Source of the DNA: Candidatus Bipolaricaulota bacterium
GTDB lineage: Bacteria; Patescibacteriota; Patescibacteriia; UBA11705; DATKZF01
Assembly (NCBI GenBank): GCA_035528115.1
Contig: DATKZF010000001.1
Location: forward strand, 92,508-156,507
Length of the DNA stretch: 64,000 bases
Reading direction: 5' to 3'
The notes under the pieces: generated by a model
The model's input: only the letters and a program-made list of their open reading frames with translations
Databases searched by the model: none
Told to the model about the DNA's origin: nothing
Position numbers and translations under genes: made by a program
In this document: positions 18,629 to 47,229 of the stretch, in pieces
Numbering within the stretch: position 1 is the first letter of the stretch
Layout: each line of letters opens with the position of its first letter

Positions 18629-18631
18629 CTT

Positions 18632-20772: not shown

Positions 20773-20807
20773 TTAAAAAATCCGGTCAGCGTGGCTGAAA
20801 CCGGATT
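20773..20807. terminator. Bidirectional intrinsic terminator
   Basis: AATCCGGT-cagcgtggctgaa-ACCGGATT with an A-run on the + side and a T-run on the - side. Confidence 0.6.
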
Positions 20808-20825
20808 CGTGGCGGCTATCGAGCC

Positions 20826-21029
20826 TCAGTGGAAATTGGTTTCCCTGATGATTTCTTGCCACTGCTCGAGAGTGGCAAAGGCTCGAGCGGTACGGTCTCT
20901 CCTTCCTCCCGGTCCATCGATGAAGTATCCGACGGACACGCGCAACTTGCTTACGGGAACCTTGTCTCCGCGCAAGCGTCCCAACACCACCTGTTTGTGC
21001 TGTTCGAAGGGATCATTCGGATTGGCCAT
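20826..21029 (-). CDS. GC-rich 67-aa hypothetical protein (MANPNDPFEQHKQ...)
   Basis: Preceded on the minus strand by AGGAGG and a TTGACA-N17-TAATAT promoter (21080..21108). Composition is strongly GC-rich relative to its neighbours. Confidence 0.4.
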   Translation of the reverse strand: MANPNDPFEQHKQVVLGRLRGDKVPVSKLRVSVGYFIDGPGGRRDRTARAFATLEQWQEIIRETNFH

Positions 21030-21079
21030 CCCCGCTTCCTCCTGTTGTCTCACACCAATAAAGGCAATTAGACAAAAAA

Positions 21080-21108
21080 ATATTAACATTAGAAAATCAG
21101 TTTGTCAA
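21080..21108 (-). promoter_or_regulatory. Consensus sigma70 promoter on the minus strand
   Basis: Reverse complement reads TTGACA aactgattttctaatgt TAATAT. Confidence 0.45.
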
Positions 21109-21123
21109 ACATAGTTTTGCTTT

Positions 21124-21588
21124 ATGGATCTAAAAATCCCAATCAATAATTGGCAAAGTGAAGACTCAACCGGAAAACCGTTTGATTTTTTTGATTGGCA
21201 AGGCGATGATTTCGCTCTTATAGTATTTTTTCGGGGCAAATTCTGCGGGTTGTGCCGAAAGTTTTTAATGAAATTAGGCGATGAGCGCGAATTTTTTAAA
21301 AAACACAAGGTAAAGATAACTGCGGTTTCTCCGGATTCCAGATTGGCCGCGGCCGTGCTTAAAACTTTTTTGCGGCTTGATTTCCCCAATTTAATCGACC
21401 CTGATTTTAAGGTGTCCGAGCTGTTCGGCGTTCCCAAAGAAGAAAAGAATCAAGCGAAATATTTAATCCCTTCGGTATTTTTAATCAATCCCAAGCATGA
21501 AATCGTCTGGGCGAAAAAAGGCGATAATTATGACGATTTTATCGAAATGAATGAAATGATGGCTAAAATAAAAGAAAATTTGGATTAA
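21124..21588 (+). CDS. Thioredoxin-fold redoxin (AhpC/TSA-like)
   Basis: FCGLC CxxC motif in a redoxin context. Confidence 0.65.
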   Translation: MDLKIPINNWQSEDSTGKPFDFFDWQGDDFALIVFFRGKFCGLCRKFLMKLGDEREFFKKHKVKITAVSPDSRLAAAVLKTFLRLDFPNLIDPDFKVSELFGVPKEEKNQAKYLIPSVFLINPKHEIVWAKKGDNYDDFIEMNEMMAKIKENLD

Positions 21589-22620
21589 ATGACTATGAGG
21601 GTGATCGATTTTAATTTCAATTTGCCTAAAAATCTTATCGCTCAAAAACCGGCCACGCCTCGAGACAGCTCGAGGCTGCTTGTTTATGCTAGAAAAACAA
21701 AAGCATTGTCGCATGAAAAATTTCATAATTTGGATAAATATTTGAACAAAGGAGATCTTTTGGTTTTTAACAATACCAAAGTGTTTCCGGCCAGGCTTTT
21801 GGGGAAAAAAGAAACAGGAGGAGCCATGGAAGTTTTTTTGCTCGAAGAAAAGAAAAAAAACGTTTGGCAGGCCTTGGTAAAAGGTAAAAATAAAAAGGCC
21901 GGGCAAAAAATCATTTTTGACAAAGTTTTAATCGCGGTTCTAAGCAAACAAATCAATGATTTCGAATGGTTGGTGAAATTTGAATACAAAGGAGATTTGC
22001 GCAAAAAATTGGAAAAAATCGGGCAAGTGCCATTGCCTCCATATATAAAATCCTCGGAGAGTCAAAGTAATCTTAAAAAGCAATATCAAACCATTTACGC
22101 AAAAAAACAGGGGTCTGTGGCCGCGCCCACGGCCGGATTTCATTTCACTGAGCAAGTTCTAAAAAAATTAAAAGCCAAAGGCGTGAAATTCGCTTATGTG
22201 ACTTTGCATGTTGGTTTGGGCACTTTCGGCCCGTTACGCCAGGCCAAAGTAGAGGATAACAAGCTTCATTATGAAAAAGTGGAAATCAATCAAACGAATT
22301 TCAACAAAATAAATAAAGCCAAAGAAGCCGGCCGCAGAGTAATTACGGTGGGCACGACCACGGCCAGAACGCTGGAAGGCGCAATGGGGGCAAAGGCCGT
22401 TAAAAAAGCTTGGAGCGGAGAATTGAATACTTTTATATATCCTGGTTATAAATTCAAAATAATCGATGGTTTGATCACTAATTTTCACTTGCCGCAAAGC
22501 TCTCTCATGATGCTCGTGGCCGCTTTAATAGGCCGAACAAATATTTTAAACGCCTATAAAACCGCGGTTAAGGAGGAATATCGATTTTACAGTTTCGGAG
22601 ACGCAATGTTGATACTCTAG
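21589..22620 (+). CDS. queA: S-adenosylmethionine:tRNA ribosyltransferase-isomerase
   Basis: The N-terminus (FNLPKNLIAQKPATPRDSSRLLV) matches the QueA N-terminal consensus I recall. Length 343 aa. Confidence 0.9.
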   Translation: MTMRVIDFNFNLPKNLIAQKPATPRDSSRLLVYARKTKALSHEKFHNLDKYLNKGDLLVFNNTKVFPARLLGKKETGGAMEVFLLEEKKKNVWQALVKGKNKKAGQKIIFDKVLIAVLSKQINDFEWLVKFEYKGDLRKKLEKIGQVPLPPYIKSSESQSNLKKQYQTIYAKKQGSVAAPTAGFHFTEQVLKKLKAKGVKFAYVTLHVGLGTFGPLRQAKVEDNKLHYEKVEINQTNFNKINKAKEAGRRVITVGTTTARTLEGAMGAKAVKKAWSGELNTFIYPGYKFKIIDGLITNFHLPQSSLMMLVAALIGRTNILNAYKTAVKEEYRFYSFGDAMLIL

Positions 22621-22667
22621 GTGGTAGCTTGTAGCTTATTAGGTTATTAGGTGGAGACGCAGGATAT

Positions 22668-23129
22668 ATGAAAAAAATTGTTTTAATTCTACCCAACATC
22701 AGAAGCGCGTTTAATGTCGGTTCGATTTTCAGAACCGCTGACGCGGCCGGCATTGAAAAAATCTATCTGTGCGGCTATACTCCGCGACCCGATAAGGATG
22801 AAAAGAAAATCGCCAAAACCGCCCTAGGCGCTGAAAATAAAGTAGCCTGGGAATATAAGAAACAGGCCGGCAGACTTATTGATGACTTGAAAAAACAAGG
22901 TTATCAAATTATTGCACTGGAAAAAACAAAAAAGAGCCTTAATTATTTGAAATTTAAACCGAAATTTTCGGCGGCTATTATTTTGGGTAATGAGGTAAAA
23001 GGCGTGTCCGCAGCGTTGCTCGAAAAATCGGATAAAACCGTTCATCTGCCCATGATGGGAGAAAAAGAATCCCTAAACGTGTCCGTGGCCTGTGGGATTT
23101 TCGCGTATTATCTCAAATTCAATGTATAA
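22668..23129 (+). CDS. SpoU/TrmH-family (SPOUT) RNA 2'-O-methyltransferase, TrmL-like
   Basis: ILGNEVKGVS and LNVSVACGI motifs in 153 aa. Confidence 0.8.
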   Translation: MKKIVLILPNIRSAFNVGSIFRTADAAGIEKIYLCGYTPRPDKDEKKIAKTALGAENKVAWEYKKQAGRLIDDLKKQGYQIIALEKTKKSLNYLKFKPKFSAAIILGNEVKGVSAALLEKSDKTVHLPMMGEKESLNVSVACGIFAYYLKFNV

Positions 23130-23173
23130 ATCGGGTGTGGTAAAAACTCGATTTTTTTAGTATAATGTAATAT

Positions 23174-23725
23174 ATGTTTTCGTTATCGGATTTTGAAAAA
23201 AAAGAACTGTTGAAACTGGCCAAAGCCGCCATTGAAGCTCAATTGGAAGGCGCGGATTTTAATCCGGAAACGCAAAATCCCGTTTTATTGGAAAATCACG
23301 GAGTTTTCGTCACTCTCTATAAAAACGGTGAATTAAGAGGTTGTATCGGCTACATCGAACCCGTTTCGACGATTTGGCAAGCTGTGATAAATAACGCGGT
23401 CAGCGCGGCTTTTGAAGATCCCAGATTTATGCCCTTGCAAAAGCAGGAATTGACGGACATTAAGCTTGAGATTTCCGTTTTGAGCGTTCCGCAAAAAACA
23501 AATATTAATCACGTCAAACAGGGGATCAATGGCGTGGTAATCCGTCGAGGAGGCAGGAAAGCGACTTACTTGCCGGATGTTTGGAAACATTTTAAAAACA
23601 AAGAGGACTTTTACGCCAGTCTTTGCGTCAAAGCGGGGCTCGAAGAAGGCGCTTGGAAAAAAAATGATGTTGATATTTACGTATATGAGACGGAGACGTT
23701 TGGACATGGATCATGTAACACATAA
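23174..23725 (+). CDS. AMMECR1-domain protein (AmmeMemoRadiSam system protein A)
   Basis: GELRGCIGYIEP core motif in 183 aa. Confidence 0.85.
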   Translation: MFSLSDFEKKELLKLAKAAIEAQLEGADFNPETQNPVLLENHGVFVTLYKNGELRGCIGYIEPVSTIWQAVINNAVSAAFEDPRFMPLQKQELTDIKLEISVLSVPQKTNINHVKQGINGVVIRRGGRKATYLPDVWKHFKNKEDFYASLCVKAGLEEGAWKKNDVDIYVYETETFGHGSCNT

Positions 23726-23743
23726 CATGAATCATGGAGTATT

Positions 23744-23997
23744 GTTACGAATTACAATAATCCGTTAGGCCGATTAATATATTTTACAAATTACATTCAC
23801 CTATAGCTTTAAGCCTGAGAATCTTGTAATTCGTAACAGATAACCTAAAAGCTTAATAGAATATTGTAATTAGTAACAAATTACTCATTACTATTTACTG
23901 ATCACTGAATTTATAAATTTGTAACCATTAGTAACGATTTATTAAACCAAAAATTAAGGCTAGTATAATAGCCGCAATAATTCGTAACGTGTAACGT
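23744..23997 (+). repeat. MITE-like repeat, composite (R3)
   Basis: A 94-bp unit (23744-23837) with perfect 14-bp TIRs GTTACGAATTACAA/TTGTAATTCGTAAC, followed by degenerate half-sites. It abuts the ATG at 23998. Confidence 0.7.
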
Positions 23998-24975
23998 ATG
24001 AAAATAAACTTCGTGGAAAATTTGGAGTTGGGACAAAAATTATCAGGTGAATCTTTTTTCGTAAAAAGCGTTAATAAATCGAAAACTCAAGCCGGCAAAG
24101 AATATTGGAATTTGCTTTTGGGTGATAAAACGGGCCAGGTCAGCGCCAAGGTCTGGGCGGATCATTTAAGCGATTGCCATGAAGCGCAAACCGGTCAAAT
24201 CGTATCCGTTTCAGGCTCTGTGCAGGAATTTAAGGGGAATAAGCAAATAATTGTGGAGTCGTTAAGCATCGCTCAAGACTATGATGAATCCGACTTCATG
24301 GGTAAATCAAAAAAGAACATTGATGATCTATATAAAATTGTGGAAAAAAATATTTTTTCGATAAAAAACGAATATCTGAAAAAATTGATTGACGGATTTT
24401 TCGGTGATTCTAATTTCGAGGAAAAATTCAAAAAAGCTCCTGGCGCCGAACGAATTCATCACGCTTATTTGGGAGGTTTGCTCGAACACGTGACAGAGAT
24501 GCTCAATCTCGCCTCGTTAATCGCCGAGGATTATCCGGTAGTCGATCATGATTTATTGATTTGCGGTGTTTTGTTGCATGATATCGGTAAAATGGAAGAG
24601 CTCGAAATAAACGGCGGCATTAAAAGAACGATCGGCGGCAAGCTCGTCGGGCATTTGCCATTGGGATTTTTAACCGTTGCCAAAAAAATTGATTCGATTA
24701 AAAATTTTCCCGATAATTTAAAATACAAACTGCACAATTTAATATTGAGCCATCATGGCAAGCGCGAATTCGGCAGTCCGATGTTGCCCATGTCGCTGGA
24801 AGCGGTGATTTTGTACCGCATAGATGAATTATCATCAAAGGCTAATGTGGCCGCCGAGGAATATGAACGCGGAGTCGAGGCCTCAAGCGTATTTTCCGAA
24901 AAAATATTCGCATTGGATAACACTGAGTTGTACATCGGCGATGATCGAGGCCCGGAACAAACTTCACTGATATAA
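23998..24975 (+). CDS. OB-fold plus HD-domain 3'-5' exoribonuclease (YhaM-like)
   Basis: An N-terminal OB fold, then HD motifs (HHAYLGGLLEH, LLHDIGK, SHHGKREFGSP). Confidence 0.75.
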   Translation: MKINFVENLELGQKLSGESFFVKSVNKSKTQAGKEYWNLLLGDKTGQVSAKVWADHLSDCHEAQTGQIVSVSGSVQEFKGNKQIIVESLSIAQDYDESDFMGKSKKNIDDLYKIVEKNIFSIKNEYLKKLIDGFFGDSNFEEKFKKAPGAERIHHAYLGGLLEHVTEMLNLASLIAEDYPVVDHDLLICGVLLHDIGKMEELEINGGIKRTIGGKLVGHLPLGFLTVAKKIDSIKNFPDNLKYKLHNLILSHHGKREFGSPMLPMSLEAVILYRIDELSSKANVAAEEYERGVEASSVFSEKIFALDNTELYIGDDRGPEQTSLI

Positions 24976-24998
24976 GGTTTAAATTTAGTAAAAAATAA

Positions 24999-27085: not shown

Positions 27086-27222
27086 GTTTAAAAACCATTT
27101 TGTCTCGGGACAAACTGAAGCGAGCGTCGCTAACGAAATAGAGAAATCCATTCCAGTCCGTTTGGAGAAGATCTCTCGACTGCGCTCGAGATGACAAAAA
27201 ACAATACGATTCACAAACAAAT

Positions 27223-28731: not shown

Positions 28732-28802
28732 TCGCTGTCTCTCTATCCCGGCATCGGGGTCGTGAGGAAATAAGAGGGGAATCACTTATTCCTCTTTTAA
28801 TA

Positions 28803-28831
28803 TTGACAATTTCATTCAAAATGCTATATTT
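28803..28831 (+). promoter_or_regulatory. Sigma70-like promoter TTGACA-N16/17-TATATT
   Basis: First signal in the GC-rich islet. A strong SD (AAGGAGG) lies 7 nt before the ATG. Confidence 0.5.
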
Positions 28832-28861
28832 AATCTCCGATCGCAAAAAAGGAGGTGTCAC

Positions 28862-29086
28862 ATGTGGGACATTGATCCGTCGGGAACCGCGCTCAACAGA
28901 GAAGGCATGCTGGTGGCCATTGCGCTGGCCATCTTCGTTGTCGTCATCTACCTCGTCGTGAGAGGAGTCCTGATTCGACGAGAACTGCGGTACCTGGAGG
29001 AGCTCAGAAGAAACAGCGACCCACCCAGTACTGATGAACCGACTCCAATCACGGAATTGGGGGGAGACGGGGAGAAAAATGCTTGA
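28862..29086 (+). CDS. 74-aa single-TM peptide (P1)
   Basis: GC-rich ORF with a hydrophobic core (VAIALAIFVVVIYLVV) and an acidic/Pro C-tail. Strong SD. Confidence 0.4.
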   Translation: MWDIDPSGTALNREGMLVAIALAIFVVVIYLVVRGVLIRRELRYLEELRRNSDPPSTDEPTPITELGGDGEKNA

Positions 29087-29225
29087 TATCCTTTGGTTTC
29101 TCAATGACAAGCAGGCCGCGCTCCTCGTGGGCTTCGGCGGCTTGATCATCGCGTACTGCTGCATCTACTTTCTGTTTGCGACTGGAGCGAAAAAAAGCAC
29201 CTCGCAAGGTTGTCCGAGAAAGTGA
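29079..29225 (+). CDS. 48-aa single-TM peptide (P2)
   Basis: MLDILWFLNDKQAALLVGFGGLIIAYCCIYFLF... Its ATG overlaps the P1 stop, and a GGGGAG SD precedes it. Confidence 0.35.
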   Translation: MLDILWFLNDKQAALLVGFGGLIIAYCCIYFLFATGAKKSTSQGCPRK

Positions 29226-29268
29226 ATATCCCAAGCGCGGACTGAATCTGGTTCGCGTTTTTGAATTC

Positions 29269-29297
29269 TTGACAGCGAGCTAAGGCTTGTGTATATT
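29269..29297 (+). promoter_or_regulatory. Consensus sigma70 promoter TTGACA-N17-TATATT
   Basis: ttgacagcgagctaaggcttgtgtatatt, followed by a GAGGAG SD 8 nt before the ATG. Confidence 0.55.
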
Positions 29298-29337
29298 TAG
29301 GGGAGGAGGAACCCCTTCGCGGTGAGGAGCTAGTGCC

Positions 29338-29460
29338 ATGAAAGCTATGCCCGAAAACAGTCCTAAGGCGTACCGGTACTTCCCAGTGTTCCTGATCACT
29401 TTGTTGATCATCTTGGTGATCATCGAACTCCTCACTAAAACTTTATCCACGTGGCGCTGA
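29338..29460 (+). CDS. 40-aa single-TM peptide (P3)
   Basis: MKAMPENSPKAYRYFPVFLITLLIILVIIELLTKTLSTWR. It has its own promoter and SD. Confidence 0.4.
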   Translation: MKAMPENSPKAYRYFPVFLITLLIILVIIELLTKTLSTWR

Positions 29461-29526
29461 TCACGCCCCAAAGAGTCCGCCTGCCATAAAGGCGCGACAA
29501 ACGTGAAGTGAATCTACTTCGCGTTT

Positions 29527-30456
29527 TTATTGTAATTTTAATCCTATGAATTCCGGATGTCCGTTGATAAAATCATTGGCACCTACTTCTTTTTTCCCTT
29601 CCAACTTAACTTTTTTGATTTCCAAGCACCCGTTTTCGCATTGAACCAAAATCCTATCGTCATGTTTAAAAACCGAGCCGACCGGTTTAGCTTCACCGCA
29701 TTCGGCGACATCAGCCGACAATATATCCAATTTTTTATCGTTAAAAAAAGTAAAAGCGCCCGGCCAGGGAGTAAACGCTCTAATTTGATTAAAAATATGC
29801 TCGGCGGAACTTTGCCAGACAATACGGCCTTGGCCTTTGGTGATGGTGGGAAAGTAAGAAGCCGCCGAATCATCTTGTTTTTGCGGATTGATTTGACCTG
29901 ACAGATAATTAGAAATGGTTTTAGACATGAGTTCGGCGCCGAGCACGGACAAGCGGTCATGAAGCGTTTGAAAATTATCGCTCTTTTTGATTTGCGATTT
30001 GTTCTGAGAAATAATATCTCCCGTATCCAGACCGGCGTCCATTTTCATAATAGTAACCCCTGTTTCCTTGTCTCCGTTGAGCAAAGCGGCCTGAATGGGC
30101 GCGGCGCCGCGGTATTTGGGGAGTAGGGAAGCGTGAATATTCAAACAGCCATGTTTTGGCAGATCCAAAATTTCCTTGGGTAAAATTTTGCCGAAAGCCA
30201 CCACCACGCCGAGATCGGGTTGTATTTTTTTCAATTCATCAATGAAATTTTTATCCAACTTTTCCGGCTGTAAAATTAAAAAATCACGCGCTTGCGCGTA
30301 TTCTTTGATCGGCGAAGCCGATAATATTTTATTTCTGCCCTTTGGTTTATCAGGTTGCGTAACGACCGCTTCGATTGAGAAATTCTCAGCCAGCGCTCGA
30401 AGAGTCGGGATGGCAAAATCGGGCGTGCCGAAGAAAATTACTTTTATGTTGTTCAT
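29527..30456 (-). CDS. fmt: Methionyl-tRNA formyltransferase
   Basis: N-terminal IFFGTPDFA motif, SLLPKYRGAAPI, and a C-terminal domain. Confidence 0.9.
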   Translation of the reverse strand: MNNIKVIFFGTPDFAIPTLRALAENFSIEAVVTQPDKPKGRNKILSASPIKEYAQARDFLILQPEKLDKNFIDELKKIQPDLGVVVAFGKILPKEILDLPKHGCLNIHASLLPKYRGAAPIQAALLNGDKETGVTIMKMDAGLDTGDIISQNKSQIKKSDNFQTLHDRLSVLGAELMSKTISNYLSGQINPQKQDDSAASYFPTITKGQGRIVWQSSAEHIFNQIRAFTPWPGAFTFFNDKKLDILSADVAECGEAKPVGSVFKHDDRILVQCENGCLEIKKVKLEGKKEVGANDFINGHPEFIGLKLQ

Positions 30457-30482
30457 ACTTCCATTATACTCTTAAATTAGCT

Positions 30483-30530
30483 GTTACGAATTACAATCTT
30501 CTCAGGCTATGAAAATATTGGATAGCCAAA
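30483..30530 (+). repeat. MITE-like repeat, short form (R4)
   Basis: GTTACGAATTACAA, then tcttctcaggctatgaaaatattggatagcc (a 6-bp-stem hairpin). Lies between fmt and def. Confidence 0.6.
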
Positions 30531-30549
30531 CCTATATTCTTGCATCCTC

Positions 30550-30999: not shown

Positions 31000-31079
31000 A
31001 AAATATACGAGGTAAATATTGGTGAGTTAATCTGTATAATCTGGTATATTCATCTGTAATCTTGTAAATTCAAATTATA

Positions 31080-32924: not shown

Positions 32925-33086
32925 ACCCGTATTTTATCAAGGAACGGATAAAATAAACAGGGCGCGGATTGCTCGCGTTCACGCGCGTAGAGGCGGAATA
33001 ATATTTCACCCCCCGCAATGGCAACGTCGTTATCCGCTGCCGACAAAAAAAACGCCGCGGCAGCGACGATTTGATGTTATTGGAAA

Positions 33087-38077: not shown

Positions 38078-38127
38078 AAGGTTACAAATAATTATTTCGA
38101 GTAGGACAAGCTTGGTTGTGGTTTTTC

Positions 38128-38146
38128 GTTACGAATGGTTACAAAT
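38128..38146 (+). repeat. Degenerate MITE-like half-site (R5)
   Basis: GTTACGAAT-ggtt-ACAAAT, upstream of clpB. Confidence 0.35.
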
Positions 38147-38223
38147 AGTATGCGATCGTCGATTTTGTCACAAATTATATAGTATTTAGCACTCTTGATA
38201 CATGACTGCTAATATATTGTACC

Positions 38224-38250
38224 AAATAAAAAATGCCTGTCAAGGCATGC
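38224..38250 (-). terminator. Intrinsic terminator
   Basis: Reverse complement reads GCCTTGACAGGC followed by TTTTTT. Serves the radical-SAM gene. Confidence 0.5.
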
Positions 38251-38303
38251 GTCACATAACACGTAACATGAATCATCAAACATGGGGAGACCGATACTTC
38301 TTT

Positions 38304-39311
38304 TTATAAAACAAACGGCAGTTCTATCCCGCATTTTGGACAAACTTTGTTATTTCGATACTTTTCTTCAATAATATACCCGCGGCGCAAAATCAAAAGC
38401 TCTCCGCATTCGGTGCAATAAGTGTCTTCGTATTTTGAAGTTTTTAAATTGCCCGCATAAACAAAACTCAAATCATTATCCTTGGCGATGCGAATGGCGT
38501 TTTCGATCGAGCTTTCCGGCGTCGGTGGCAATGAATCCAATTTGTATTCCGGACAAAAAGCGGTCAGGTGCCAAGGGGTGTCACTGCCCAAATCAAAACG
38601 GATGAATTTGGCCATCTTGGAAACCTCTTCGTCCGAGTCGTTTAAGCCAGGGATGAGCAAAGTGGTAACTTCCAAATGAACTTTGGATTTGGACACTCTG
38701 ATCAGCGAGTCTTTGACATGTTTGAACTTGGCTCCGCAGATTTTGTTATAATTATCTTCCGTAAAAAATTTCAAATCAATGTTTATGGCGTCCAAATACG
38801 GTTCAATCAATTCAAACGTTTCCTTGGTGAAATACCCGTTTGATACCCAAACATTGAACAGTCCCTCTTTTTTGGCTTGTTTCATAACTTCCAGCGCGTA
38901 CTCGACGTAAATCGTCGGCTCGGTGTAAGTGTAAGCGATGCTTTTACAATTCAGGCTTTTTGCGGAATTGACCACTTGCCAAGGAGCCACGTCTTCTCCG
39001 GGAATTTCATCGAGCGGAGAAACTTGAGATATTGAATAATTTTGACAATGCAGACATCTAAAATTACAGCCCACGCTGGCTATCGAGTAAGAGAGAGATC
39101 CGGGCAAAAAATGAAACAGCGGCTTTTTCTCTATAGGATCAACATTTTGCGAAATCAATTTGCCGTAATTCAAACTGAAAAGAATGCCGTCAATATTTTG
39201 CCTGACCTGACACAAGCCTTTTTGGCCAGGATTGATTAAACAACCTTGCAAGCAATTGAAACATTTTATGGAGTGTTCTTTTGAGTTCTCCCAATTAATG
39301 GCTTCCTTCAT
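38304..39311 (-). CDS. AmmeMemoRadiSam-system radical SAM enzyme (PflA-like activase family)
   Basis: N-terminal Cys cluster (KCFNCLQGC...GLCQVRQN) plus SVGCNFRCLHCQNY (CxxxCxxC). Confidence 0.8.
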   Translation of the reverse strand: MKEAINWENSKEHSIKCFNCLQGCLINPGQKGLCQVRQNIDGILFSLNYGKLISQNVDPIEKKPLFHFLPGSLSYSIASVGCNFRCLHCQNYSISQVSPLDEIPGEDVAPWQVVNSAKSLNCKSIAYTYTEPTIYVEYALEVMKQAKKEGLFNVWVSNGYFTKETFELIEPYLDAINIDLKFFTEDNYNKICGAKFKHVKDSLIRVSKSKVHLEVTTLLIPGLNDSDEEVSKMAKFIRFDLGSDTPWHLTAFCPEYKLDSLPPTPESSIENAIRIAKDNDLSFVYAGNLKTSKYEDTYCTECGELLILRRGYIIEEKYRNNKVCPKCGIELPFVL

Positions 39312-39325
39312 AAATTATAAAGACG

Positions 39326-39366
39326 TTACGAATTACAATATTCACAAACATCGTAATTTTACTTAT
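39326..39366 (+). repeat. MITE-like repeat, short form (R6)
   Basis: GTTACGAATTACAA, then tattcacaaacatcgtaatttta. Upstream of ligT. Confidence 0.55.
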
Positions 39367-39447
39367 ATTTACACTGGCGCTGATTTAGGATATAATTAAA
39401 TACAATAATATTATATCAAAATTGAGATATAATTGAAATAGACGAAT

Positions 39448-41192: not shown

Positions 41193-41197
41193 AATTC

Positions 41198-41331
41198 GTT
41201 ACGAATTACAGTCATCTTTTAGGCTTTCAGGTTATTTGTTACAAATTACAATCTTCTCAGGCATAAAGCTATAAATGAACGTACTTCGCAACAACCGCAT
41301 AGAAGCTAACCGGAAGAATGTAATTTGTAAC
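41198..41331 (+). repeat. MITE-like repeat, 134-bp form (R7)
   Basis: GTTACGAATTACA at the 5' end and AATGTAATTTGTAAC at the 3' end, collinear with R2. It abuts the GC-rich islet. Confidence 0.7.
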
Positions 41332-41348
41332 TTTTTTAAAATACTGAA

Positions 41349-41378
41349 CCCGCGAAGAATGACCTCGCGGGTTTTTGG
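41349..41378. terminator. Bidirectional terminator
   Basis: ACCCGCGA-agaatgacc-TCGCGGGT followed by TTTTT. Confidence 0.5.
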
Positions 41379-41413
41379 GTAGGATTTGGGGGTGGGTGAG
41401 TTACCGGTGGGAA

Positions 41414-42733
41414 CTACTTGCCGCCGTTCACGAGCTTCAGGCGCACGCGGACGGAGCCGGAAGCGACCTCGGAAGCCGCGCGCTGGAGCTTTCGCTCGTT
41501 CGCGCGCTGGAAGCGATTCCACAGCCAGCTCAGCGTGGTGCTGAGAGGCTGAGCCTCCGCCTCAACCTCGATCCTGCTTCCATCGCGGAAGCGAGAATCC
41601 TTGAGGCCGGACTTTCTGGCCAGCGCCACGGCCATGGAGGCCTCGCTCGAGTGGAGGAGAACGACCCGATCCTTGTCCTTGACCTTGAAGGTCATGACGA
41701 GAATCGGGCAGACGTCCATGCCCGCAATGGCGTCCGGGTGAGGGCCGAAACCGGTCGGGAACAAGCCGCTTTCGACGCAGAAGGCAACGATCTCCTTCCA
41801 GTCGAACACCGGCCATTCCACCCGATCGCTCGGGTGTGCGAACCTCTCGGTCTCCGAGTTTTCGAAGACCTCCTTGAGCCGCCGCATGAGCTCGAACGGC
41901 TCGAAGTTCAGCGGGTCGCTCGACTCGAGGCGAGCGACCACCTTCGCCGTCTTCTCCTGACGCTTCTTGTCGCGGCCGGCCATGTGCTTGGCCAGCCGGA
42001 ACAGATCGGCCGCTCCGTCCTCGAGGCGGTCGAAGACCAGATCCTTTCGGACCTGGCAGATCGCCACCGCGTTCAAGCGGCCGAGGATGGCGAATCCGGG
42101 CCGTCCGGTCGCCCGCGACACGAGAGCGAAGTCGCGCTCGCTCTTGTCGAGCGCGAGCGCTTTGGCGCGCTCGGCCAACCTTTCGGGGTTGAGCTTGCCC
42201 TTGCCGACGATGTCGTCGCCGAGAGCCTCGGTCATGGCTTCGGCCGAGAGGAACTTCCCCTCGCCGGAAATAGCCGCCTTGACCTGCTCCTGCCGAGCGG
42301 CCCAGGCCAGAGGGTTGATGAGCGGTACGATCTGCCGCTGATCGATCTTGGCCTGACGGCTAATGCCCAGCCGTCGCGCCTCTTCCTTGTCGCGCGCGGC
42401 CAGCACCGCGGCCGCGCACTTGCGGTGGTAGATGTCGCCCTCGCCCTTGACAACGAAGGCTTCTGACACGGAGATGACACCTGTCATTTCCGCCTTCCGG
42501 CACACTCTGCAGTGCACCTTCAGCTTGTCTAGGGGGAGCGAGACCTTGCGGTCATCAACTCCCGACTTTATTAGGTGGGTGATCTGGTCCGGGCCGGAAA
42601 TGGTCGTCTTGCCTTCCTCGCCGATGAAGGTCACCGGCAGGATCTCGTTGTTCCCGTTCTTGACCGCCACGGTCGTGCCGTGGAATGCGATCACCTGGGC
42701 CACAGTCTTCAATTCCTTAGTCGCCATGATCAT
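41414..42733 (-). CDS. GC-rich 439-aa hypothetical protein (foreign-looking)
   Basis: Marked GC enrichment across 41340-42830 between AT-rich flanks. Composition is protein-like (K/E/A/R-rich), and AAGGAGC precedes an ATGATCATG start. The antisense ORF 41375..42466 looks like a GC-shadow ORF. Confidence 0.55.
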   Translation of the reverse strand: MIMATKELKTVAQVIAFHGTTVAVKNGNNEILPVTFIGEEGKTTISGPDQITHLIKSGVDDRKVSLPLDKLKVHCRVCRKAEMTGVISVSEAFVVKGEGDIYHRKCAAAVLAARDKEEARRLGISRQAKIDQRQIVPLINPLAWAARQEQVKAAISGEGKFLSAEAMTEALGDDIVGKGKLNPERLAERAKALALDKSERDFALVSRATGRPGFAILGRLNAVAICQVRKDLVFDRLEDGAADLFRLAKHMAGRDKKRQEKTAKVVARLESSDPLNFEPFELMRRLKEVFENSETERFAHPSDRVEWPVFDWKEIVAFCVESGLFPTGFGPHPDAIAGMDVCPILVMTFKVKDKDRVVLLHSSEASMAVALARKSGLKDSRFRDGSRIEVEAEAQPLSTTLSWLWNRFQRANERKLQRAASEVASGSVRVRLKLVNGGK

Positions 42734-42989
42734 GCTCCTTGCCCGACCTCGCGGGCTTTTCTGGGTGTTCTCGAATCTGGCCGATCTTGCGATCGGATTA
42801 CTCGCGCTTTAATGCTTGCTTAGCGGAACTTTTTGGCAATATACTAAATAATCGTTCGGCTTTTTCGCCGAATCGAACATTAAATAATATCACATTTTAC
42901 TCAAAAAGTCAATATAGTGCTTATTTTTAAGCTAATTTTAGCGAATTTTAAAAACATTTCATTTAATCAACCGATTTTAACAGCTAAAA

Positions 42990-43018
42990 TTGACAGCGGG
43001 GGATAGCTGGCTTATAAT
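42990..43018 (+). promoter_or_regulatory. Consensus sigma70 promoter TTGACA-N17-TATAAT for gltX
   Basis: ttgacagcgggggatagctggcttataat. Confidence 0.55.
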
Positions 43019-43046
43019 TATAAACAAGTGTTTATAGCTTAAAATT

Positions 43047-44576
43047 ATGGAAAACAAACCCTATTCAAAGGTAAGGGTGCGCATAGCGCCAAGTCCGACA
43101 GGATTCGTGCATATCGGCAATTTACGGACAATTTTATATAATTACCTGTTCGCCAAACATTATGACGGCGATTTTTTGGTTAGAATCGAAGATACGGATC
43201 AATCAAGATACGTGGAAGGCGCGGTGGAAAATTTACTGAATGTTTTGAATTGGACAGATATAGAATACGATGAAGGGCCTTTTTTGACTGAAGGAAAGAT
43301 AGCTCAAAAAGGGGAGAGCGGACCGTATTTTCAATCCGAGCGTTTGGATATTTACAAAGAACATATCGCGCATTTGATTGACAGCGGCAAAGCCTATTAT
43401 TGTTTTTGCGACAAAATCCGTTTGGACAATTTGCGGGAAGAGCAAGCAAAAAATAACCTGCCGCCAAAATACGACAATCATTGCCGTCATTTAAGCAGGG
43501 AGGAAATTGAAAAAAAATTAAACAACAAAGCGCCTCATGTGATCCGTTTCAAAATGCCGGAGGAAAAAGATATTGTAATCAATGATGAAATTCACGGGAC
43601 AATAACGGTCAACACAAAGGATTTGGACGACTATGTTTTAATCAAATCCGACGGTTTCCCGACCTATCATTTCGCCAATGTCATTGACGATCATTTGATG
43701 AAAATAACGCATGTTCTACGCGGAGACGAATGGATCCCCAGCACGCCCAAGCATGTGTTGCTTTATGAAGCTTTCGGTTGGCAGCCTCCGATATTCGCTC
43801 ATTTGCCGCCACTGGTCAATAAACAAAAAAAGAAGTTGAGCAAAAGGGAAGCGTCGGCTTCTGTCCATGATTTTATGGACAAAGGTTATTTGCCCGAAGC
43901 ATTGATTAATTTCATCGCTCTTTTAGGCTGGAATTCCGGGTCGGATCAGGAAATTTTCACCATGCACGAATTAATCAAACAGTTTAATCTGGACAGAGTG
44001 CATAAAAGCGCGGCGGTTTTGGACGTGGACAAATTGGACTGGATGAACGGCTATTACCTGAAACAACTCACGGTTGAAAAATTCATGGCCATGGCTCTGC
44101 CTGTTTTGGAAAAAGCCGAATTGATCGCTTTGACCAAAAAGGAGTACAAGGTTCTCGAAACCAAAGAAAAATTGACATATCCCGTGTTGAAACAAATTAT
44201 AGAATTGGAGAAGAACCGCGTTAAAAAACTTTCGGATTTGCCCGAGGCTTTAAAATATTTCTTTGTGGCGGATATTGATTATGATGTAAAAAGCCTTTTA
44301 TGGAAAAAGAACACCAAGGATTCCACTGAAAAACATTTGAGCGCCTTGCTTAACTTTCTGTCGAAATTGAAAACCGACGACTTTTCCGTAACCCGCTTGG
44401 ATTCGCTGATCAAAAATTTTATTCAGGAAAATAGCTTCGAAAACGGGGATGTTTTGTGGCCGATGAGAGTCGCTCTTTCTGGCAGACAGGCTTCTCCGGG
44501 ACCGTTTGAAATAGCGGCCGCTCTGGGCAAAAAGAAAACCATTGCCAGAATCAAAAAAGCCATTTCCATGCTTTGA
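43047..44576 (+). CDS. gltX: Glutamyl-tRNA synthetase
   Basis: HIGH (PTGFVHIGNLRT) and KLSKR motifs. 509 aa. Confidence 0.95.
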   Translation: MENKPYSKVRVRIAPSPTGFVHIGNLRTILYNYLFAKHYDGDFLVRIEDTDQSRYVEGAVENLLNVLNWTDIEYDEGPFLTEGKIAQKGESGPYFQSERLDIYKEHIAHLIDSGKAYYCFCDKIRLDNLREEQAKNNLPPKYDNHCRHLSREEIEKKLNNKAPHVIRFKMPEEKDIVINDEIHGTITVNTKDLDDYVLIKSDGFPTYHFANVIDDHLMKITHVLRGDEWIPSTPKHVLLYEAFGWQPPIFAHLPPLVNKQKKKLSKREASASVHDFMDKGYLPEALINFIALLGWNSGSDQEIFTMHELIKQFNLDRVHKSAAVLDVDKLDWMNGYYLKQLTVEKFMAMALPVLEKAELIALTKKEYKVLETKEKLTYPVLKQIIELEKNRVKKLSDLPEALKYFFVADIDYDVKSLLWKKNTKDSTEKHLSALLNFLSKLKTDDFSVTRLDSLIKNFIQENSFENGDVLWPMRVALSGRQASPGPFEIAAALGKKKTIARIKKAISML

Positions 44577-44623
44577 GAAATTATGCTATAATATTGTCAG
44601 CGTAATATTCACTCAATTTTGAA

Positions 44624-45898
44624 ATGGAAACAAAAACAAAAGGGTTGATTAAAATTTGCGCGATCGCGGCGATAATCGGTTTATTCGCCAATTTTGGTTT
44701 TGCCAGAGCGGATATAGACAGCGAAATCAATGACATTAATTCCCAAATAAAAGACAAACAAAAAACCCTGGAATCATTGAAAAAACAAGCTGATTCTTAT
44801 CTTGATAATATTAATGCAAAACAAAACGAAACGGTCAGTTTGCAAAATCAATTATCAATACTTGAAAATAAGATCGCCAAGGCGGAAATAGATATTCAAA
44901 CCACGGAAGCCACCATTGAAAAAACCCAGCTTGAAATAAAAGACGTGGCGATTCAAATTTCAAACAGGGAAGCGGATATTCTAAAAAAAGACGACGAACT
45001 CCAAGAATTGGTCAGATTATTGTATAAATCGGATCAACAGGGGACACTGCAAATATTATTGGCCAATGACACCTTGTCCGACTTTTTCGATCAAGTTAAA
45101 CACACCAAATCATTGCAAGGAAACCTGCAGAACTCATTGATTTCCGTCAAATCATACAAAGCTCAATTGGAAAGCAAAAAAGATACTTTGAATAAAAAAA
45201 ATGATGAGTTGGACAAGTTAAGGAAACAAGCTGAGCAGCAAAAAATAGCTTTGCAAGAAGAATTGGATTCCAAAGGATATTTATTGAAAGAAACGAAAAA
45301 TTCCGAAGAAAAGTTTTACAATTTATACTGGCAAACCAAACAGGAACAGCAAAATTCCAGCGCGGAAATTTATTCATTGGAAAAAGAAGCGAGATTAAAA
45401 CTCGAAGAGTTGGAAAACAAAAGAAAAGAAGCCTCCCCATCAAAAACGGAGTCCGGATTTAAGCCTTTGAGCGATTCGACCATAATGTGGCCGATCAAAG
45501 ATATTTCCAGAGGCATTTCTGCCACTTTTCACGACCCGACTTATCCGTTCAGACATTTGTTCGAGCATCCCGGCATCGATGTCAGGGCTTATCAAAGCAC
45601 GGCCATATACGCGGCATCCGATGGTTATGTGATATCAGCCAAGGATAACGGCTATGGCTACAATTATATTTCAATCATGCATGCCAACGGCATTTCCACG
45701 GTTTACGGCCATGTCAGTAAAATTCTGGTCAAACCGGATCAATATGTCATCAAGGGGCAACAAATAGGCCAAACCGGCGGCATGCCCGGCACGCTTGGAG
45801 CGGGCAATCTGTCCACCGGGCCTCATCTTCACTTTGAAGTCAGATTAAACGGTATTCCGGTCAATCCGCTGGATTATCTGCCGGATATGGGATTTTAA
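44624..45898 (+). CDS. M23/LytM-family peptidoglycan metallo-endopeptidase with an N-terminal coiled coil (EnvC-like)
   Basis: Signal peptide, a long coiled coil, then a C-terminal HxxxD...HLHFE M23 domain. Confidence 0.8.
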   Translation: METKTKGLIKICAIAAIIGLFANFGFARADIDSEINDINSQIKDKQKTLESLKKQADSYLDNINAKQNETVSLQNQLSILENKIAKAEIDIQTTEATIEKTQLEIKDVAIQISNREADILKKDDELQELVRLLYKSDQQGTLQILLANDTLSDFFDQVKHTKSLQGNLQNSLISVKSYKAQLESKKDTLNKKNDELDKLRKQAEQQKIALQEELDSKGYLLKETKNSEEKFYNLYWQTKQEQQNSSAEIYSLEKEARLKLEELENKRKEASPSKTESGFKPLSDSTIMWPIKDISRGISATFHDPTYPFRHLFEHPGIDVRAYQSTAIYAASDGYVISAKDNGYGYNYISIMHANGISTVYGHVSKILVKPDQYVIKGQQIGQTGGMPGTLGAGNLSTGPHLHFEVRLNGIPVNPLDYLPDMGF

Positions 45899-45920
45899 TA
45901 AATAGCAAAATAAATAAAAA

Positions 45921-45947
45921 ATCGCCTCAAAAAGGCGTTTTTTCTTT
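45921..45947 (+). terminator. Intrinsic terminator
   Basis: CGCCT-caaaa-AGGCG followed by TTTTTT. Confidence 0.6.
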
Positions 45948-45955
45948 TAAAATGA

Positions 45956-46229
45956 TTCAGCCGTCCACTTGTTAGCAGACGGCTGAAAATGTCGTAGAGT
46001 CCGACCAAGATCTGCCATCACTCGATGGCTTCACTCAGTCGGCGCCGCCGGGTCACTCGGTCAGGTCGCGTCGCGCTGGCCGTCACGATGCCGTCGTCGA
46101 GGCACAGACATTTGGAACCGTATGCCGAAACAGCGACTCACTGGGAACCCTCCATGGCTTTCCTCCTTGCCATGTGAGTTTTAGACACCCTCGCACACCT
46201 TTGTGCAAGAGATCCAAAGAAAAGAACTG
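45956..46229 (-). ncRNA. Candidate structured RNA or leader transcript (unclassified)
   Basis: Bounded by the minus-strand promoter at 46236-46263 and the hairpin TCAGCCGTC...GACGGCTGA (45957-45986). GC-rich with several 6-bp hairpins. No ORF of 60 aa or more. Confidence 0.3.
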
Positions 46230-46235
46230 ACAACA

Positions 46236-46263
46236 TTATAGCAAATATTTATATATTGTCAAT
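46236..46263 (-). promoter_or_regulatory. Consensus sigma70 promoter (TTGACA-N16-TATAAT), near-palindromic and possibly bidirectional
   Basis: Reverse complement reads ttgacaatatataaatatttgctataat. The plus strand reads CTGACA-N17-TATATA. Confidence 0.5.
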
Positions 46264-46338
46264 AGCCAGAAGGCATTATTGATGTTTTTTATCTTATTTT
46301 AGACAAAAAATCAAAATTCATCCATTACATTTAAAATT

Positions 46339-46556
46339 AAAAAACCGTCCGCTCAAGAGCAACGGACGGTCAGGTTGTGGGCGCCACTTGGTGGACGCCG
46401 GTTGCCGGTTTCGGAGCTCTCCCGAGAGACGCTCCAGCCCAACGGACAGGACCAGAACCAGCACATCGAGCTATCTTTCGCTCTTCCAACCTAACGCTAG
46501 TCCATTTTTTTGGCCAACAGCTGAAGCGTTAGGGCGCTTGCGAATTAGCTCGATGG
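46339..46556 (-). ncRNA. Candidate structured RNA of about 215 nt (unclassified)
   Basis: Runs from the minus-strand promoter TTGACG-N17-TATTAT (46561-46590) to the terminator CCGTCCG...CGGACGG plus U-run (46339-46370). Long-range pairing CATCGAGCTA...TAGCTCGATG, and GC-rich hairpins. Confidence 0.35.
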
Positions 46557-46560
46557 CATA

Positions 46561-46590
46561 ATAATATCAAACATCGTAAAACCCGTCAAG
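46561..46590 (-). promoter_or_regulatory. Sigma70-like promoter TTGACG-N17-TATTAT
   Basis: Reverse complement reads ttgacgggttttacgatgtttgatattat. Confidence 0.5.
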
Positions 46591-47229
46591 TATATCAATA
46601 TTTGCATTTCGTGGGTCATAAAACTCAAAAACCATGGGGGATAGCAAAAATTTGTCTATAATTTGAAATGAGCGATATTATTTACAACAAGTTAAGAAGA
46701 AGGAAAACAAGCAGCCGTTGATTTATTATTTATTTAATTGTCTTTGCTTCAAGCTCAGATTTTGAGATTCAGGCGGGGAGAGTAGCGCTCATCGCATTGG
46801 ATTGGAGGATATGAAGCGTCGCACAATATACCTTATGCGACACATTAACCAACTTTCCTTGGGCTATGTGTCGCATAAGGTTCGCATATTTTGCAACGCT
46901 TGCGGTGCAATCTCGCAAAATATGCGTAATAGGCCTTAAAACGCAATTTTGAGCCTCGCTTTTGGTCTATTTTGTGTTAATATTATTGACTTAAACGAAT
47001 CTTCAACAGAAAAAAATTTCAGCTCCTTTAAGACATTTAAAATTTAAAAATCCGGATTTGCCATCCGAACCCTTTTTCCATGATTTATTTTTTATTTTCT
47101 ATTACTTAATACTCGTTACCTATTGCTGGTTTATAAAAACCCATTTCCCCATTATCTTCATCGCTCTCTCCCACTATGCGTCGCAAAACATGATACCAAA
47201 ATTTTAGCAACCGGATTAACTTGAAATAT

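Follow-up and report, generated by a model that had tools for sequence, protein, structure and literature searches.

The stretch of DNA analysed here (the window, 64,000 nucleotides, GC content 41.3%) belongs to a patescibacterial (CPR) bacterium and contains the replication terminus. It carries four GC-rich islets with their own promoters, and the question is whether these are recently delivered, self-expressing mini-cassettes, as an earlier note on this DNA proposed, or resident parts of the genome. That they might be mis-assembled or mis-binned, with chimeric joins to GC-rich organisms, is suggested by the MAG label Bipolaricaulota, which disagrees with the patescibacterial genes and hints at imperfect binning or classification. 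However, Logan assemblies made independently from two SRA runs are 100% identical to the window over positions 17491-52727, which cover every islet boundary and exclude a chimera, islet 2 was confirmed by contigs of other samples in ENA and JGI, and the GC-rich gene of islet 3 has counterparts at the same slot in independently assembled relatives. An artefact is thereby effectively refuted. The units of the islets, and a neighbouring dif-like site, are the following.

20778..21108, minus strand: islet 1, a 67-aa ORF (MANPND..., 21029-20826) behind the Shine-Dalgarno (SD) sequence AGGAGG, with promoter TTGACA-N17-TAATAT (21108-21080) and an intrinsic terminator at ~20799-20778.
28803..29262, plus strand: islet 2a, overlapping ORFs of 74 aa (28862-29086) and 48 aa (29079-29225), with promoter TTGACA-N16-TATATT (28803-28830), SD AAGGAGGTG and a terminator at ~29236-29262.
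29269..29528, plus strand: islet 2b, a 40-aa hydrophobic ORF (29338-29460) behind SD AGGAG, with promoter TTGACA-N17-TATATT (29269-29297) and a terminator at 29499-29526.
41347..42912, minus strand: islet 3, gene X, with a CDS at 42727-41414 (437 aa, or 439 aa if the upstream ATG at 42733 is used), TG-extended promoter TTGACT-N17-TATTAT (42912-42884), a 5' UTR of ~150 nt with a hairpin at its 5' end, SD AAGGAG and a terminator at 41373-41347.
45956..46262, minus strand: islet 4a, a predicted GC-rich transcript of ~280 nt with SD AAGGAGG and a five-codon ORF (MEGSQ, 46155-46138), TG-extended promoter TTGACA-N16-TATAAT and a 14-bp terminator (45987-45956).
46343..46589, minus strand: islet 4b, a predicted transcript of ~215 nt with no convincing ORF, TG-extended promoter TTGACG-N17-TATTAT and a terminator at 46371-46343.
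46816..46843, no strand assigned: dif-like 11-6-11 site, GTGTCGCATAA-GGTATA-TTGTGCGACGC.

With 200-nt windows, the sole strong GC outlier was 41325-42807 (maximum 0.70, z 4.25). Islets 1, 2, 4a and 4b peaked at 0.585-0.63 (z 2.5-3.3), and ordinary genes peaked as high at 9.5 kb, 53.0 kb (PBP2) and 56.9 kb (MreB). The GC-rich patches, which had been described as foreign in composition, are thus real and islet 3 deviates strongly, but parts of MreB or PBP2 are as GC-rich as the other three. They are distinct in GC when set beside the remaining intergenic DNA, and their separation from coding GC is weak because AT-richness in the host is moderate (41% GC). The deviation in composition from the host is strong for islet 3 (GC 0.64; GC3 0.85 versus 0.48) and modest elsewhere (GC3 0.63-0.68).

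The promoters do not set the islets apart. Five islet promoters had been counted within one mismatch of the consensus, of which we recover three (28803 and 29269, 11/12 each, and 46262, 12/12); three more score 10/12 (21108, 42912 and 46589). Nor can canonical promoters serve as a hallmark of islets, since five of the eight promoters in the 64 kb that score at least 11/12 drive host units.

8642, tRNA-Trp; 31108, Def; 38243, ClpB; 39368, LigT; 42990, GluRS: host promoters scoring at least 11/12.

As the islets already account for ~24% of the intergenic DNA, consensus promoters are not enriched in them, and islet promoters are AT-rich and host-like, those of host genes being equally canonical. 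The reported contrast in SD use, for its part, was borne out and proved stronger than claimed: an SD core of at least 5 nt precedes 5/6 islet ORFs versus 1/29 called host genes (Fisher p = 1e-4), and host genes are mostly SD-less or leaderless. Taken as self-contained units with promoter, leader, SD and terminator, with raised GC and GC3 and with orphan-only coding, the islets are supported as a distinguishable set.

Small cargo had been ascribed to all islets, which holds for islets 1, 2 and 4 but not for islet 3, whose 437/439-aa ORF has a clear coding signature (GC1/2/3 = 0.64/0.42/0.85). Gene X lies in a slot between WecG and GluRS, and this slot was compared in five relatives with GluRS identities of 60-72%. 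All five (L006, L008, L010, L016 and L017) hold a GC-rich minus-strand orphan gene there, three of them homologous to X, and not the empty slot expected of a recent import. Across the six genomes, the slot genes have a GC of 0.53-0.67 versus 0.34-0.44 for the host, and a GC3 of 0.58-0.97 versus 0.25-0.50. Among the three homologous relatives blastp gave 1e-11 to 1e-7, and the window protein was linked to them by a single hhalign comparison with a profile of these 3 sequences (E 1.9e-6, probability 90%, 349 collinear columns). The homology is confined to the clade of ~70% GluRS identity; for the slot genes of L016 and L017 no homology was detected to X or to one another, and identities range from 25% down to undetectable homology. 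Four genomes share an orthologous TTGACT-N17-TATAAT promoter, a 5' UTR of 130-150 nt and an SD at the slot gene, and the GC-rich composition starts within the 5' UTR, downstream of the conserved AT-rich promoter. The GC3 of X follows that of the host across genomes (r = 0.88, p = 0.02, slope ~1.1) with an offset of ~+0.3 to +0.5. Searches of 5.8 billion proteins, 1.84 billion representatives, plasmids, phages and viral contigs returned no homologs of X beyond self and orthologous CPR matches. Judged by its sequence and synteny, islet 3 is an old resident gene with a fixed chromosomal position in the relatives, and not recently imported DNA.

The slot genes are also exceptionally rich in local structure. 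Compared with synonymous-codon permutations, their local MFE gave z = -7.6, -7.6, -6.4, -9.3 and -11.3 (-7.6 for X of the window), whereas GluRS, M23 and WecG gave -0.6 to +0.3 in the same test, and eight pSymB genes of equal GC3 had a mean z of -0.9 (range +1.2 to -3.9). The gain in folding, 0.08-0.19 kcal/mol per nt, is far above that of control genes. Hairpins of 6 bp occur at 2-5 times expectation, and the structure is distributed along the CDS, with the first ~180 nt spared. Since the excess is equal on both strands, selection at the level of RNA and at the level of DNA cannot be told apart. A hairpin-dense gene at a conserved slot is new.

Islet 1 is 100% identical in an independent assembly (L015). 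Its ORF has a GC1/2/3 of 0.59/0.43/0.63, and an alternative 87-aa call would start upstream of the predicted TSS. In islet 2 the 74-aa and 48-aa proteins have been deposited (HUT21889.1 and HUT21890.1), and the terminators of 2a and 2b are 81% identical (repeat D20). The 74-, 48- and 40-aa ORFs each contain one long hydrophobic stretch, a predicted helix judged by reading of the sequence, and would thus resemble type I toxins as small proteins with a single hydrophobic helix and a promoter of their own. No matches to islet 2 were found in Pfam, NCBIfam, PADLOC or PHROGs, a promoter scan gave no obvious antisense promoter within it, and the 74-aa and 67-aa proteins had no viral relatives. Contigs of a variant strain (L013 and L014) carry the islet 2 core (28848-29205, ~345 nt) with 100% identity while their flanks have diverged, with a host gene ~90% identical or unalignable sequence, which fits a recent exchange of islet 2 between strains.

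Islet 4 lies at most 230 bp from the dif-like site and is patchy among relatives: L006 and L010 lack 4a and 4b, and their orf128 is missing from the window. Only in L008 does an architectural analogue of 4a occupy the same slot; its micro-ORF, MWWRDT, does not match MEGSQ, and this only candidate homolog could not be convincingly aligned with 4a. Neither islet 4a nor 4b had Rfam matches at gathering or permissive thresholds, and with Rfam and the L008 unit neither covariation-supported structure nor membership of a curated family was found for the small islets. Folding of the small-islet transcripts without their terminators ranged from z = -1.1 to -3.8 versus a host background of -0.09 +/- 0.82. 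Islet 4b (z = -4.6 with and -3.8 without the terminator; MFE and centroid structures almost coincide) and islet 1 (-3.8; transcript body -2.5) fold better than shuffled sequence, and 2a, 2b and 4a are marginal once terminators are removed (-1.1 to -1.4; for 4a -3.3 with and -1.1 without). Islet 4b is the best candidate for a structured sRNA.

The dif-like site is part of the context of islet 4 and not of the islet itself. It is placed in a conserved non-coding element of ~440 bp (46766-47200), is unique in the window, has syntenic copies in L006, L008 and L010, and resembles the E. coli dif core. The cumulative G-C curve peaks at 29.3 kb and declines beyond 47 kb. Genes converge in orientation at the site, which combines the properties of a chromosomal dif (a unique 28-bp 11-6-11 arrangement, a switch of skew and orientation, and conservation). 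No second dif-like site was found at the islet edges, the best other 28-mers reaching at most 15/22 arm matches.

Long GC-rich intergenic regions of AT-rich genomes are an established mark of structured RNAs and of missed short ORFs (PMC6429828). The small islets 1, 2, 4a and 4b correspond to this pattern, being long GC-rich intergenic regions with a promoter and either a folded transcript with terminator or short ORFs, and the same two outcomes, structured RNA and unannotated short ORF, are reported by such screens (PMC6429828, PMC11109978); unlike the families found there, the small islets have no Rfam family or alignable homologs for covariation. Genomic islands share with the islets deviant GC and codon usage, orphan genes, a position close to the terminus and dif, and differing translation signals. 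The islets differ in that neither mobility genes nor boundaries were found for them, that the main islet has syntenic homologs in deeply diverged relatives with a GC3 that follows each host rather than having ameliorated, and that its structural signal is absent from ordinary GC-rich genes. Xer-dependent modules (IMEX, Acinetobacter pdif) and integron cassettes are likewise small self-contained gene units, and islet 4 lies near a dif-like site; in contrast to IMEX and pdif, the 64 kb contain one such site and no islet has a second, bounding one, and neither attC-like structures nor an integrase were found at the islets.

Selection for local mRNA structure acts on bacterial coding regions, and type I toxin (hok-like) transcripts are highly folded, stable mRNAs. 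By analogy, X, with native folds that beat codon-shuffled ones, an open start region and a long leadered SD-dependent mRNA, may resemble such transcripts, and the small hydrophobic peptides of islet 2 may resemble the toxins. On the other hand, the folding effect in each slot gene (z of -6 to -11) is far larger than in control genes, X is 437 aa long, and no antisense RNA partner or toxin-family HMM match was found.

We lean towards the reading that the islets are not one family of delivered cassettes but a heterogeneous group of resident, terminus-proximal units, each transcribed separately. This group would comprise X, an orphan protein gene that is conserved in the clade and evolves very fast; small SD-led proteins, three or four in number and mostly with one hydrophobic helix; and the two sRNA-like transcripts of islet 4. 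Their common thread would be leadered, folded transcripts, set against the AU-rich, leaderless or SD-less ordinary mRNAs of the host, while canonical sigma-70 promoters and intrinsic terminators would be a property of every monocistronic unit here. The reading starts from direct observations (conserved synteny, homology, the common promoter, UTR and SD, the offset in GC3, the excess of hairpins and the contrast in SD use). If selection favours closely spaced local stem-loops, be it at the transcript or at the DNA level, it would drive synonymous sites to G/C and keep GC3 ~0.3-0.5 above the host's mutational equilibrium. We propose that islet genes need a strong SD because a folded leadered mRNA would be unable to use the unstructured or leaderless initiation that is the host's default. 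Both this sequence of causes, from structure through GC3 to the SD, and any biological role of X are inferred.

That the islets are instead recent, self-expressing inserts from GC-rich, SD-using donors into an AT-rich, leaderless-type host would account for the excess GC and GC3 together with the SD dichotomy, the entirely orphan cargo, the identical islet 2 core between diverged flanks, the patchiness of islet 4 and the position close to dif in the terminus zone, which is typical of accessory DNA. An 11-nt direct repeat on both sides of X (13/5000 shuffles) also agrees with insertion, but the 11-mer is absent in the relatives and specific to the window. Moreover, X keeps its slot, strand, promoter, 5' UTR and SD down to 70% GluRS identity; an import of such age should have ameliorated. 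The GC3 of X also tracks that of the host. No integrase or transposase adjoins any islet, no att/dif-like boundaries or shared flanking repeats were found, different islets have no sequence in common, the promoters are as canonical at host genes, the hairpin excess is missing from ordinary GC-rich genes, and donor homologs were not found in the searched databases. We therefore regard such delivery as unlikely; what stands of the earlier note's reading is that the islets form a distinguishable set and that islet 2 was probably exchanged recently between strains, but the largest islet is resident and syntenic, and mobility signatures and donors were not found. It is also improbable that a recombination hot spot exists at the WecG|GluRS slot, and perhaps at the M23|dif gap, where GC-rich genes unrelated to one another would repeatedly come to lie behind a resident promoter, by integron-like capture with no recognisable integrase. 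The non-homologous yet GC-rich, minus-strand and hairpin-dense occupants of L016 and L017, the onset of GC-rich sequence downstream of the conserved promoter, and mosaic identity blocks in the variant strain, which denote active recombination, speak for refilling; however, four occupants are homologous and collinear, attC-like or dif-like sites were not found flanking the slot, a GC3 offset correlated with host GC3 is unexpected from random donors, and extreme hairpin excess in all occupants is unexpected of unrelated imports, normal GC-rich genes having none.

For the small islets, we find it highly doubtful that 1, 2, 4a and 4b are all purely structured RNAs of the GC-IGR type with incidental short ORFs. 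The GC-IGR principle (PMC6429828), the good folding of 4b with no credible ORF and the dissimilar micro-ORFs of 4a and its L008 analogue agree with this, but the ORFs of islets 1 and 2 follow strong SDs at the proper place, have a GC3 above their GC2 and encode predicted hydrophobic helices, folding of 2a and 2b is weak, and Rfam gave no match. A further possibility, which we hold only tentatively and think rather unlikely, is that, whatever the protein, a GC-rich and hairpin-dense transcription unit is required at the WecG|GluRS slot near dif, its function residing in nucleic-acid structure and the ORF being secondary. If so, the unit may act as an RNA of exceptional stability or dual function, or as a DNA element of the terminus such as a fork barrier or topological site. 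More generally, folded transcripts led by an SD could then be a gene class of their own, translated separately in a bacterium that is otherwise leaderless.

A MITE-like repeat had been noted beside one islet. It is real and belongs to the GTTACGAATTACAA family.

41193..41291, no strand assigned: MITE/REP-like repeat of the GTTACGAATTACAA family, abutting islet 3.

The family is present at no fewer than five intergenic sites, and a single copy adjoins an islet; the others are at ~17465-17600, 23742-23882, 30459-30508, 39306-39349 and 38126-38146. Logan contigs end at the 23.8-kb copy.

The GC-rich islets singled out in the earlier note contain the following elements (SD, Shine-Dalgarno-type ribosome-binding site).

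Islet 1, about 20.8 kb, minus strand: promoter, SD, soluble-looking 67-aa ORF, terminator
Islet 2 (2a and 2b), about 28.8 kb, plus strand: two units in tandem with similar -10 regions and terminators, encoding proteins of 74, 48 and 40 aa
Islet 3, about 41.4 kb, minus strand: TTGACT-N17-TATTAT promoter, 5' UTR of ~150 nt, SD AAGGAG, 437-aa ORF, terminator
Islet 4a, about 46 kb, minus strand: ~280 nt, perfect promoter, SD followed by a 5-codon ORF
Islet 4b, about 46 kb, minus strand: ~215 nt, no credible ORF, folding z = -4.6, centroid near the MFE structure

The 437-aa ORF of islet 3, here called X, had been overlooked. Mean GC of the window is 0.413, and only the stretch 41.3-42.8 kb departs from it strongly, with 200-nt windows of up to 0.70 (z 4.25). 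Islets 1, 2, 4a and 4b peak at z 2.5-3.3, a level also reached inside PBP2 and MreB, although they count among the few intergenic patches that are rich in GC. A further short patch of GC-rich (0.50) intergenic DNA (32925-33086, minus strand), absent from the earlier list, separates the Memo terminator from the leaderless start of PriA and could be another small structured element. Chimeric assembly as the source of the islets was checked and excluded, as Logan assemblies of two SRA runs were 100% identical to the window over 17491-52727 and islet 2 was also carried by ENA and JGI contigs.

Five near-perfect promoter pairs had been ascribed to the islets, which proved to be an overstatement. 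Eight sites in the 64 kb match at least 11 of the 12 consensus positions, three of them in islets (28803, 29269 and 46262). Since the other five serve host units (tRNA-Trp, Def, ClpB, LigT and GluRS), canonical promoters are a property of the genome and not of the islets. The MITE-like repeat reported beside an islet is real, but the family, built of GTTACGAATTACAA units that often form inverted pairs, occupies at least five intergenic sites and only one copy adjoins an islet. The Logan contigs end at the 23.8-kb copy.

17465-17600: MITE/REP-like repeat, intergenic
23742-23882: MITE/REP-like repeat, intergenic
30459-30508: MITE/REP-like repeat, intergenic
38126-38146: MITE/REP-like repeat, intergenic
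39306-39349: MITE/REP-like repeat, intergenic
41193-41291: MITE/REP-like repeat, intergenic

The contrast in translation signals between islets and host, on the other hand, turned out to be genuine. An SD core of at least 5 nt precedes five of the six islet ORFs, in each case AGGAGG-type and correctly spaced, compared with one of 29 host genes between 17.6 and 52.7 kb (Fisher p = 1e-4; host gene calls transferred from independent annotations). In the relatives (loci L006 to L017) 6 of 59 host genes have an SD, and in these genomes, as in the 17.6-52.7 kb region, many host genes carry a TATAAT-like box 5-12 nt upstream of the ATG. The scarcity of SDs together with this closely placed box implies that translation in this clade would be largely leaderless or SD-independent. 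L008 contributes four of the six SD-led genes counted in the relatives. In L008, too, a run of small genes without Pfam match, inserted between Alr and SerRS (16357-18897), may be an accessory island. These patterns point to two initiation modes in one small genome, leaderless or SD-less for housekeeping genes and SD-dependent for folded accessory transcripts.

The source MAG was deposited as "Candidatus Bipolaricaulota bacterium" (window proteins HUT21889-HUT21901). However, the nearest sequences to its GluRS are from Patescibacteria/CPR (Falkowbacteria and Kuenenbacteria; best non-self matches 69-72%), and judged by GluRS and gene content the host is a CPR bacterium near these two groups, so the deposited label is probably wrong.

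To place islet 3 in a comparative context, relatives were retrieved via GluRS (60-72% identity), which gave five loci (L006, L008, L010, L016 and L017); the loci added by GluRS scans of GTDB and JGI were all distant or truncated. The neighbourhood WecG/NUDIX - slot - GluRS - M23 is kept in all five, and the slot, the WecG|GluRS interval occupied by X in the window, holds in each a minus-strand gene of 360-565 aa without Pfam match (in L016 the gene caller had picked an antisense shadow frame; the true frame has GC3 0.94-0.97). Slot-gene GC greatly exceeds host GC throughout (0.62/0.44, 0.53/0.34, 0.58/0.36, 0.67/0.44 and 0.57/0.39). The slot proteins of L006, L008 and L010 are homologous among themselves (24-27% identity, E 1e-11 to 1e-7), and their profile aligns with X over 349 collinear columns (hhalign E 1.9e-6, probability 90%). 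Four genomes share a promoter at the slot (TTGACT, a T-rich spacer and TGATATAAT), evidently orthologous by its sequence, followed by a leader of 130-150 nt that opens with a hairpin, and an SD. The GC1/2/3 of X is 0.64/0.42/0.85. Its GC3 rises with that of the host (r = 0.88, p = 0.02, slope ~1.1) at an offset of +0.30 to +0.49, as expected if a resident gene is subject to a steady force of its own, and unlike a series of separate imports from random donors. The strain pairs L006/L007 and L008/L009 are identical, so neither yields a short-term dN/dS.

The X protein has a Cys-containing, beta-rich N-terminal region and a helical middle, and in the relatives a basic C-terminal tail, which gives only hints of nucleic-acid binding; an AlphaFold2 model from a three-sequence alignment reached a pLDDT of 34, too low to be of use. 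An 11-mer, CCCGCGAGGTC (minus strand), is present twice, in the hairpin that immediately precedes the SD of X (42745-42755) and in the X terminator (41363-41373), an arrangement seen in 13 of 5000 shuffles; the two copies could let the 5' and 3' ends pair or be boundary marks, and have no counterpart in the relatives.

The slot genes are densely self-complementary. When local folding energy in 150-nt windows was compared with 40 synonymous-codon permutations, preserving protein and codon usage, the slot genes of the window, L006, L008, L010 and L017 gave z values of -7.6, -7.6, -6.4, -9.3 and -11.3 (excess -0.08 to -0.19 kcal/mol per nt), as against -0.6 to +0.3 and an excess of about 0 for the host genes GluRS, M23 and WecG. 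Eight pSymB genes with GC3 of 0.78-0.84 had a mean z of -0.9 (+1.2 to -3.9) and an excess no stronger than -0.045 kcal/mol per nt. Dinucleotide shuffling of 240-nt pieces agreed with the codon permutations (X mean -3.7, host segments -0.09 +/- 0.82). The signal is distributed over the coding sequence, is missing from its first ~180 nt and is equal on both strands. Short perfect hairpins are 2-5 times more frequent than expected, and enrichment of palindromic hexamers was rejected as the cause, the self-complementarity stemming from many short hairpins and not from a few palindromic motifs. No prior description of a conserved slot gene with persistent GC3 excess and extreme hairpin density was found in the open-access literature.

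The observations in the earlier note are confirmed in part. Its proposal that the islets are horizontally delivered, self-expressing mini-cassettes is likewise supported in part: a distinct class with its own SD usage is real, but recent delivery finds no support in the synteny of the slot or in signs of mobility. For none of the islets did we find an integrase, boundaries, shared sequence or a donor. All islet cargo lacked matches in Pfam, PHROGs, PADLOC, NCBIfam, Rfam and PDB, the last in sequence and profile searches; an exhaustive HMMER match, P0126, was rejected as a repetitive T9SS adhesin scoring through 18 weak repeat matches. Scans of viral contigs with the small islet proteins and tblastn of X against plasmids and phages were negative. 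No relationship emerged when the rest of the window was searched by tblastn with the X family, or when the islets were compared by blastn with one another and with the relatives, and a Xer/pdif module was rejected since a second dif-like site was not found. The slot proteins of L016 and L017 show no detectable homology to X or to each other, either because they have diverged too far for homology to be recognised or because the slot gene was replaced; a landing-pad model of the slot seems to us improbable.

Taken together, the comparative data argue against islet 3, the main islet, being a recently delivered foreign cassette. X is an old resident gene, although it looks foreign on the standard tests (GC, codon usage, SD and orphan status), and selection for nucleic-acid structure accounts better for its deviant composition. 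Most economically, the islets can be read as resident transcription units that are leadered and folded. If stem-loops are selected for, GC would rise, and GC3 above all, and a folded leader would make an SD necessary in a bacterium with leaderless or SD-less initiation by default; by this chain from structure through GC/GC3 to SD, which we infer, the three features described in the earlier note would be linked without transfer. The hairpin density may alternatively have a DNA-level role in the terminus region. Islands of deviant composition are as a rule taken for horizontal transfer, and X is a counterexample; if general, it would mean false positives among GC- and codon-based transfer calls for CPR and other reduced genomes.

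The small islets lean to structure even without their terminators (dinucleotide shuffles: 4b -3.8, islet 1 -2.5, 2a, 2b and 4a -1.1 to -1.4) and fit the established pattern of GC-rich intergenic regions harbouring structured RNAs and missed small ORFs (PMC6429828). Each islet 2 protein, judged from its sequence, has a single hydrophobic helix. In the contigs of a variant strain (L013/L014) islet 2 lies downstream of the same host gene, itself a mosaic of ~85-99% identity to the window. The 5' UTR has diverged with the -35 and -10 hexamers kept, identity is 100% over a block of 345 nt that starts with the SD and takes in both ORFs, and beyond this block the sequences are wholly different. This shows islet 2 to be a real unit, with a core hit by recent recombination or a sweep. 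In L008 the gap between M23 and the dif-like site holds a unit placed and oriented like 4a and built like it, from a promoter, an SD, a 6-codon ORF, a GC-rich body and a terminator, although the two do not align convincingly; L006 and L010 lack it. All three relatives share, after the M23 peptidase gene, a conserved ORF with an HExxH-like motif (LAHE[IL]AHYQ), which is missing from the window, where 4a and 4b take this position.

L006 12969-13355: orf127/128, 127-128 aa
L008 12977-13360: orf127/128, 127-128 aa
L010 5236-5622: orf127/128, 127-128 aa

With both elements so patchily distributed, the content of this gap turns over.

Cumulative G-C skew has its maximum at 29.3 kb and declines past 47 kb, where gene orientation converges. 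A 28-bp dif-like 11-6-11 site, unique in the window, coincides with the switch of skew and orientation.

46816-46843: dif-like site, GTGTCGCATAA-GGTATA-TTGTGCGACGC

Syntenic copies in three relatives (L006 13514-13541, L010 5834-5861, L008 ~13826-13853) are invariant, including the central hexamer, despite diverged flanks. The site resembles a Xer dif site and probably serves the chromosome as its dif, at the replication terminus; skew, converging orientation and dif-like site place islets 2-4 in a terminus-proximal zone. Around it, a non-coding element of ~440 bp (46766-47200) is conserved in the alignment with L006, L008 and L010, with invariant blocks (GAGTAGTG; CTTAAATCGCAATTTTGAGCC; CTCGCCCACTATGCGTCGCAAAA), additional dif half-sites (46868-46878 and 47178-47188) and a long-range inverted repeat GGGCGAG...CTCGCCC, which differs in the window (GGGAGAG...CTCTCCC) by one compensatory change; it had no match in Rfam. 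For this uncultivated lineage the analysis thus supplies a candidate dif site and terminus, along with several candidate sRNAs and small proteins. In L017 the 3' flank of the slot gene (~1860-1950) contains a dif-like half-site, GCGTCGCATCATAATATAC, just past the gene, and the same contig encodes a tyrosine recombinase (13446-14399).
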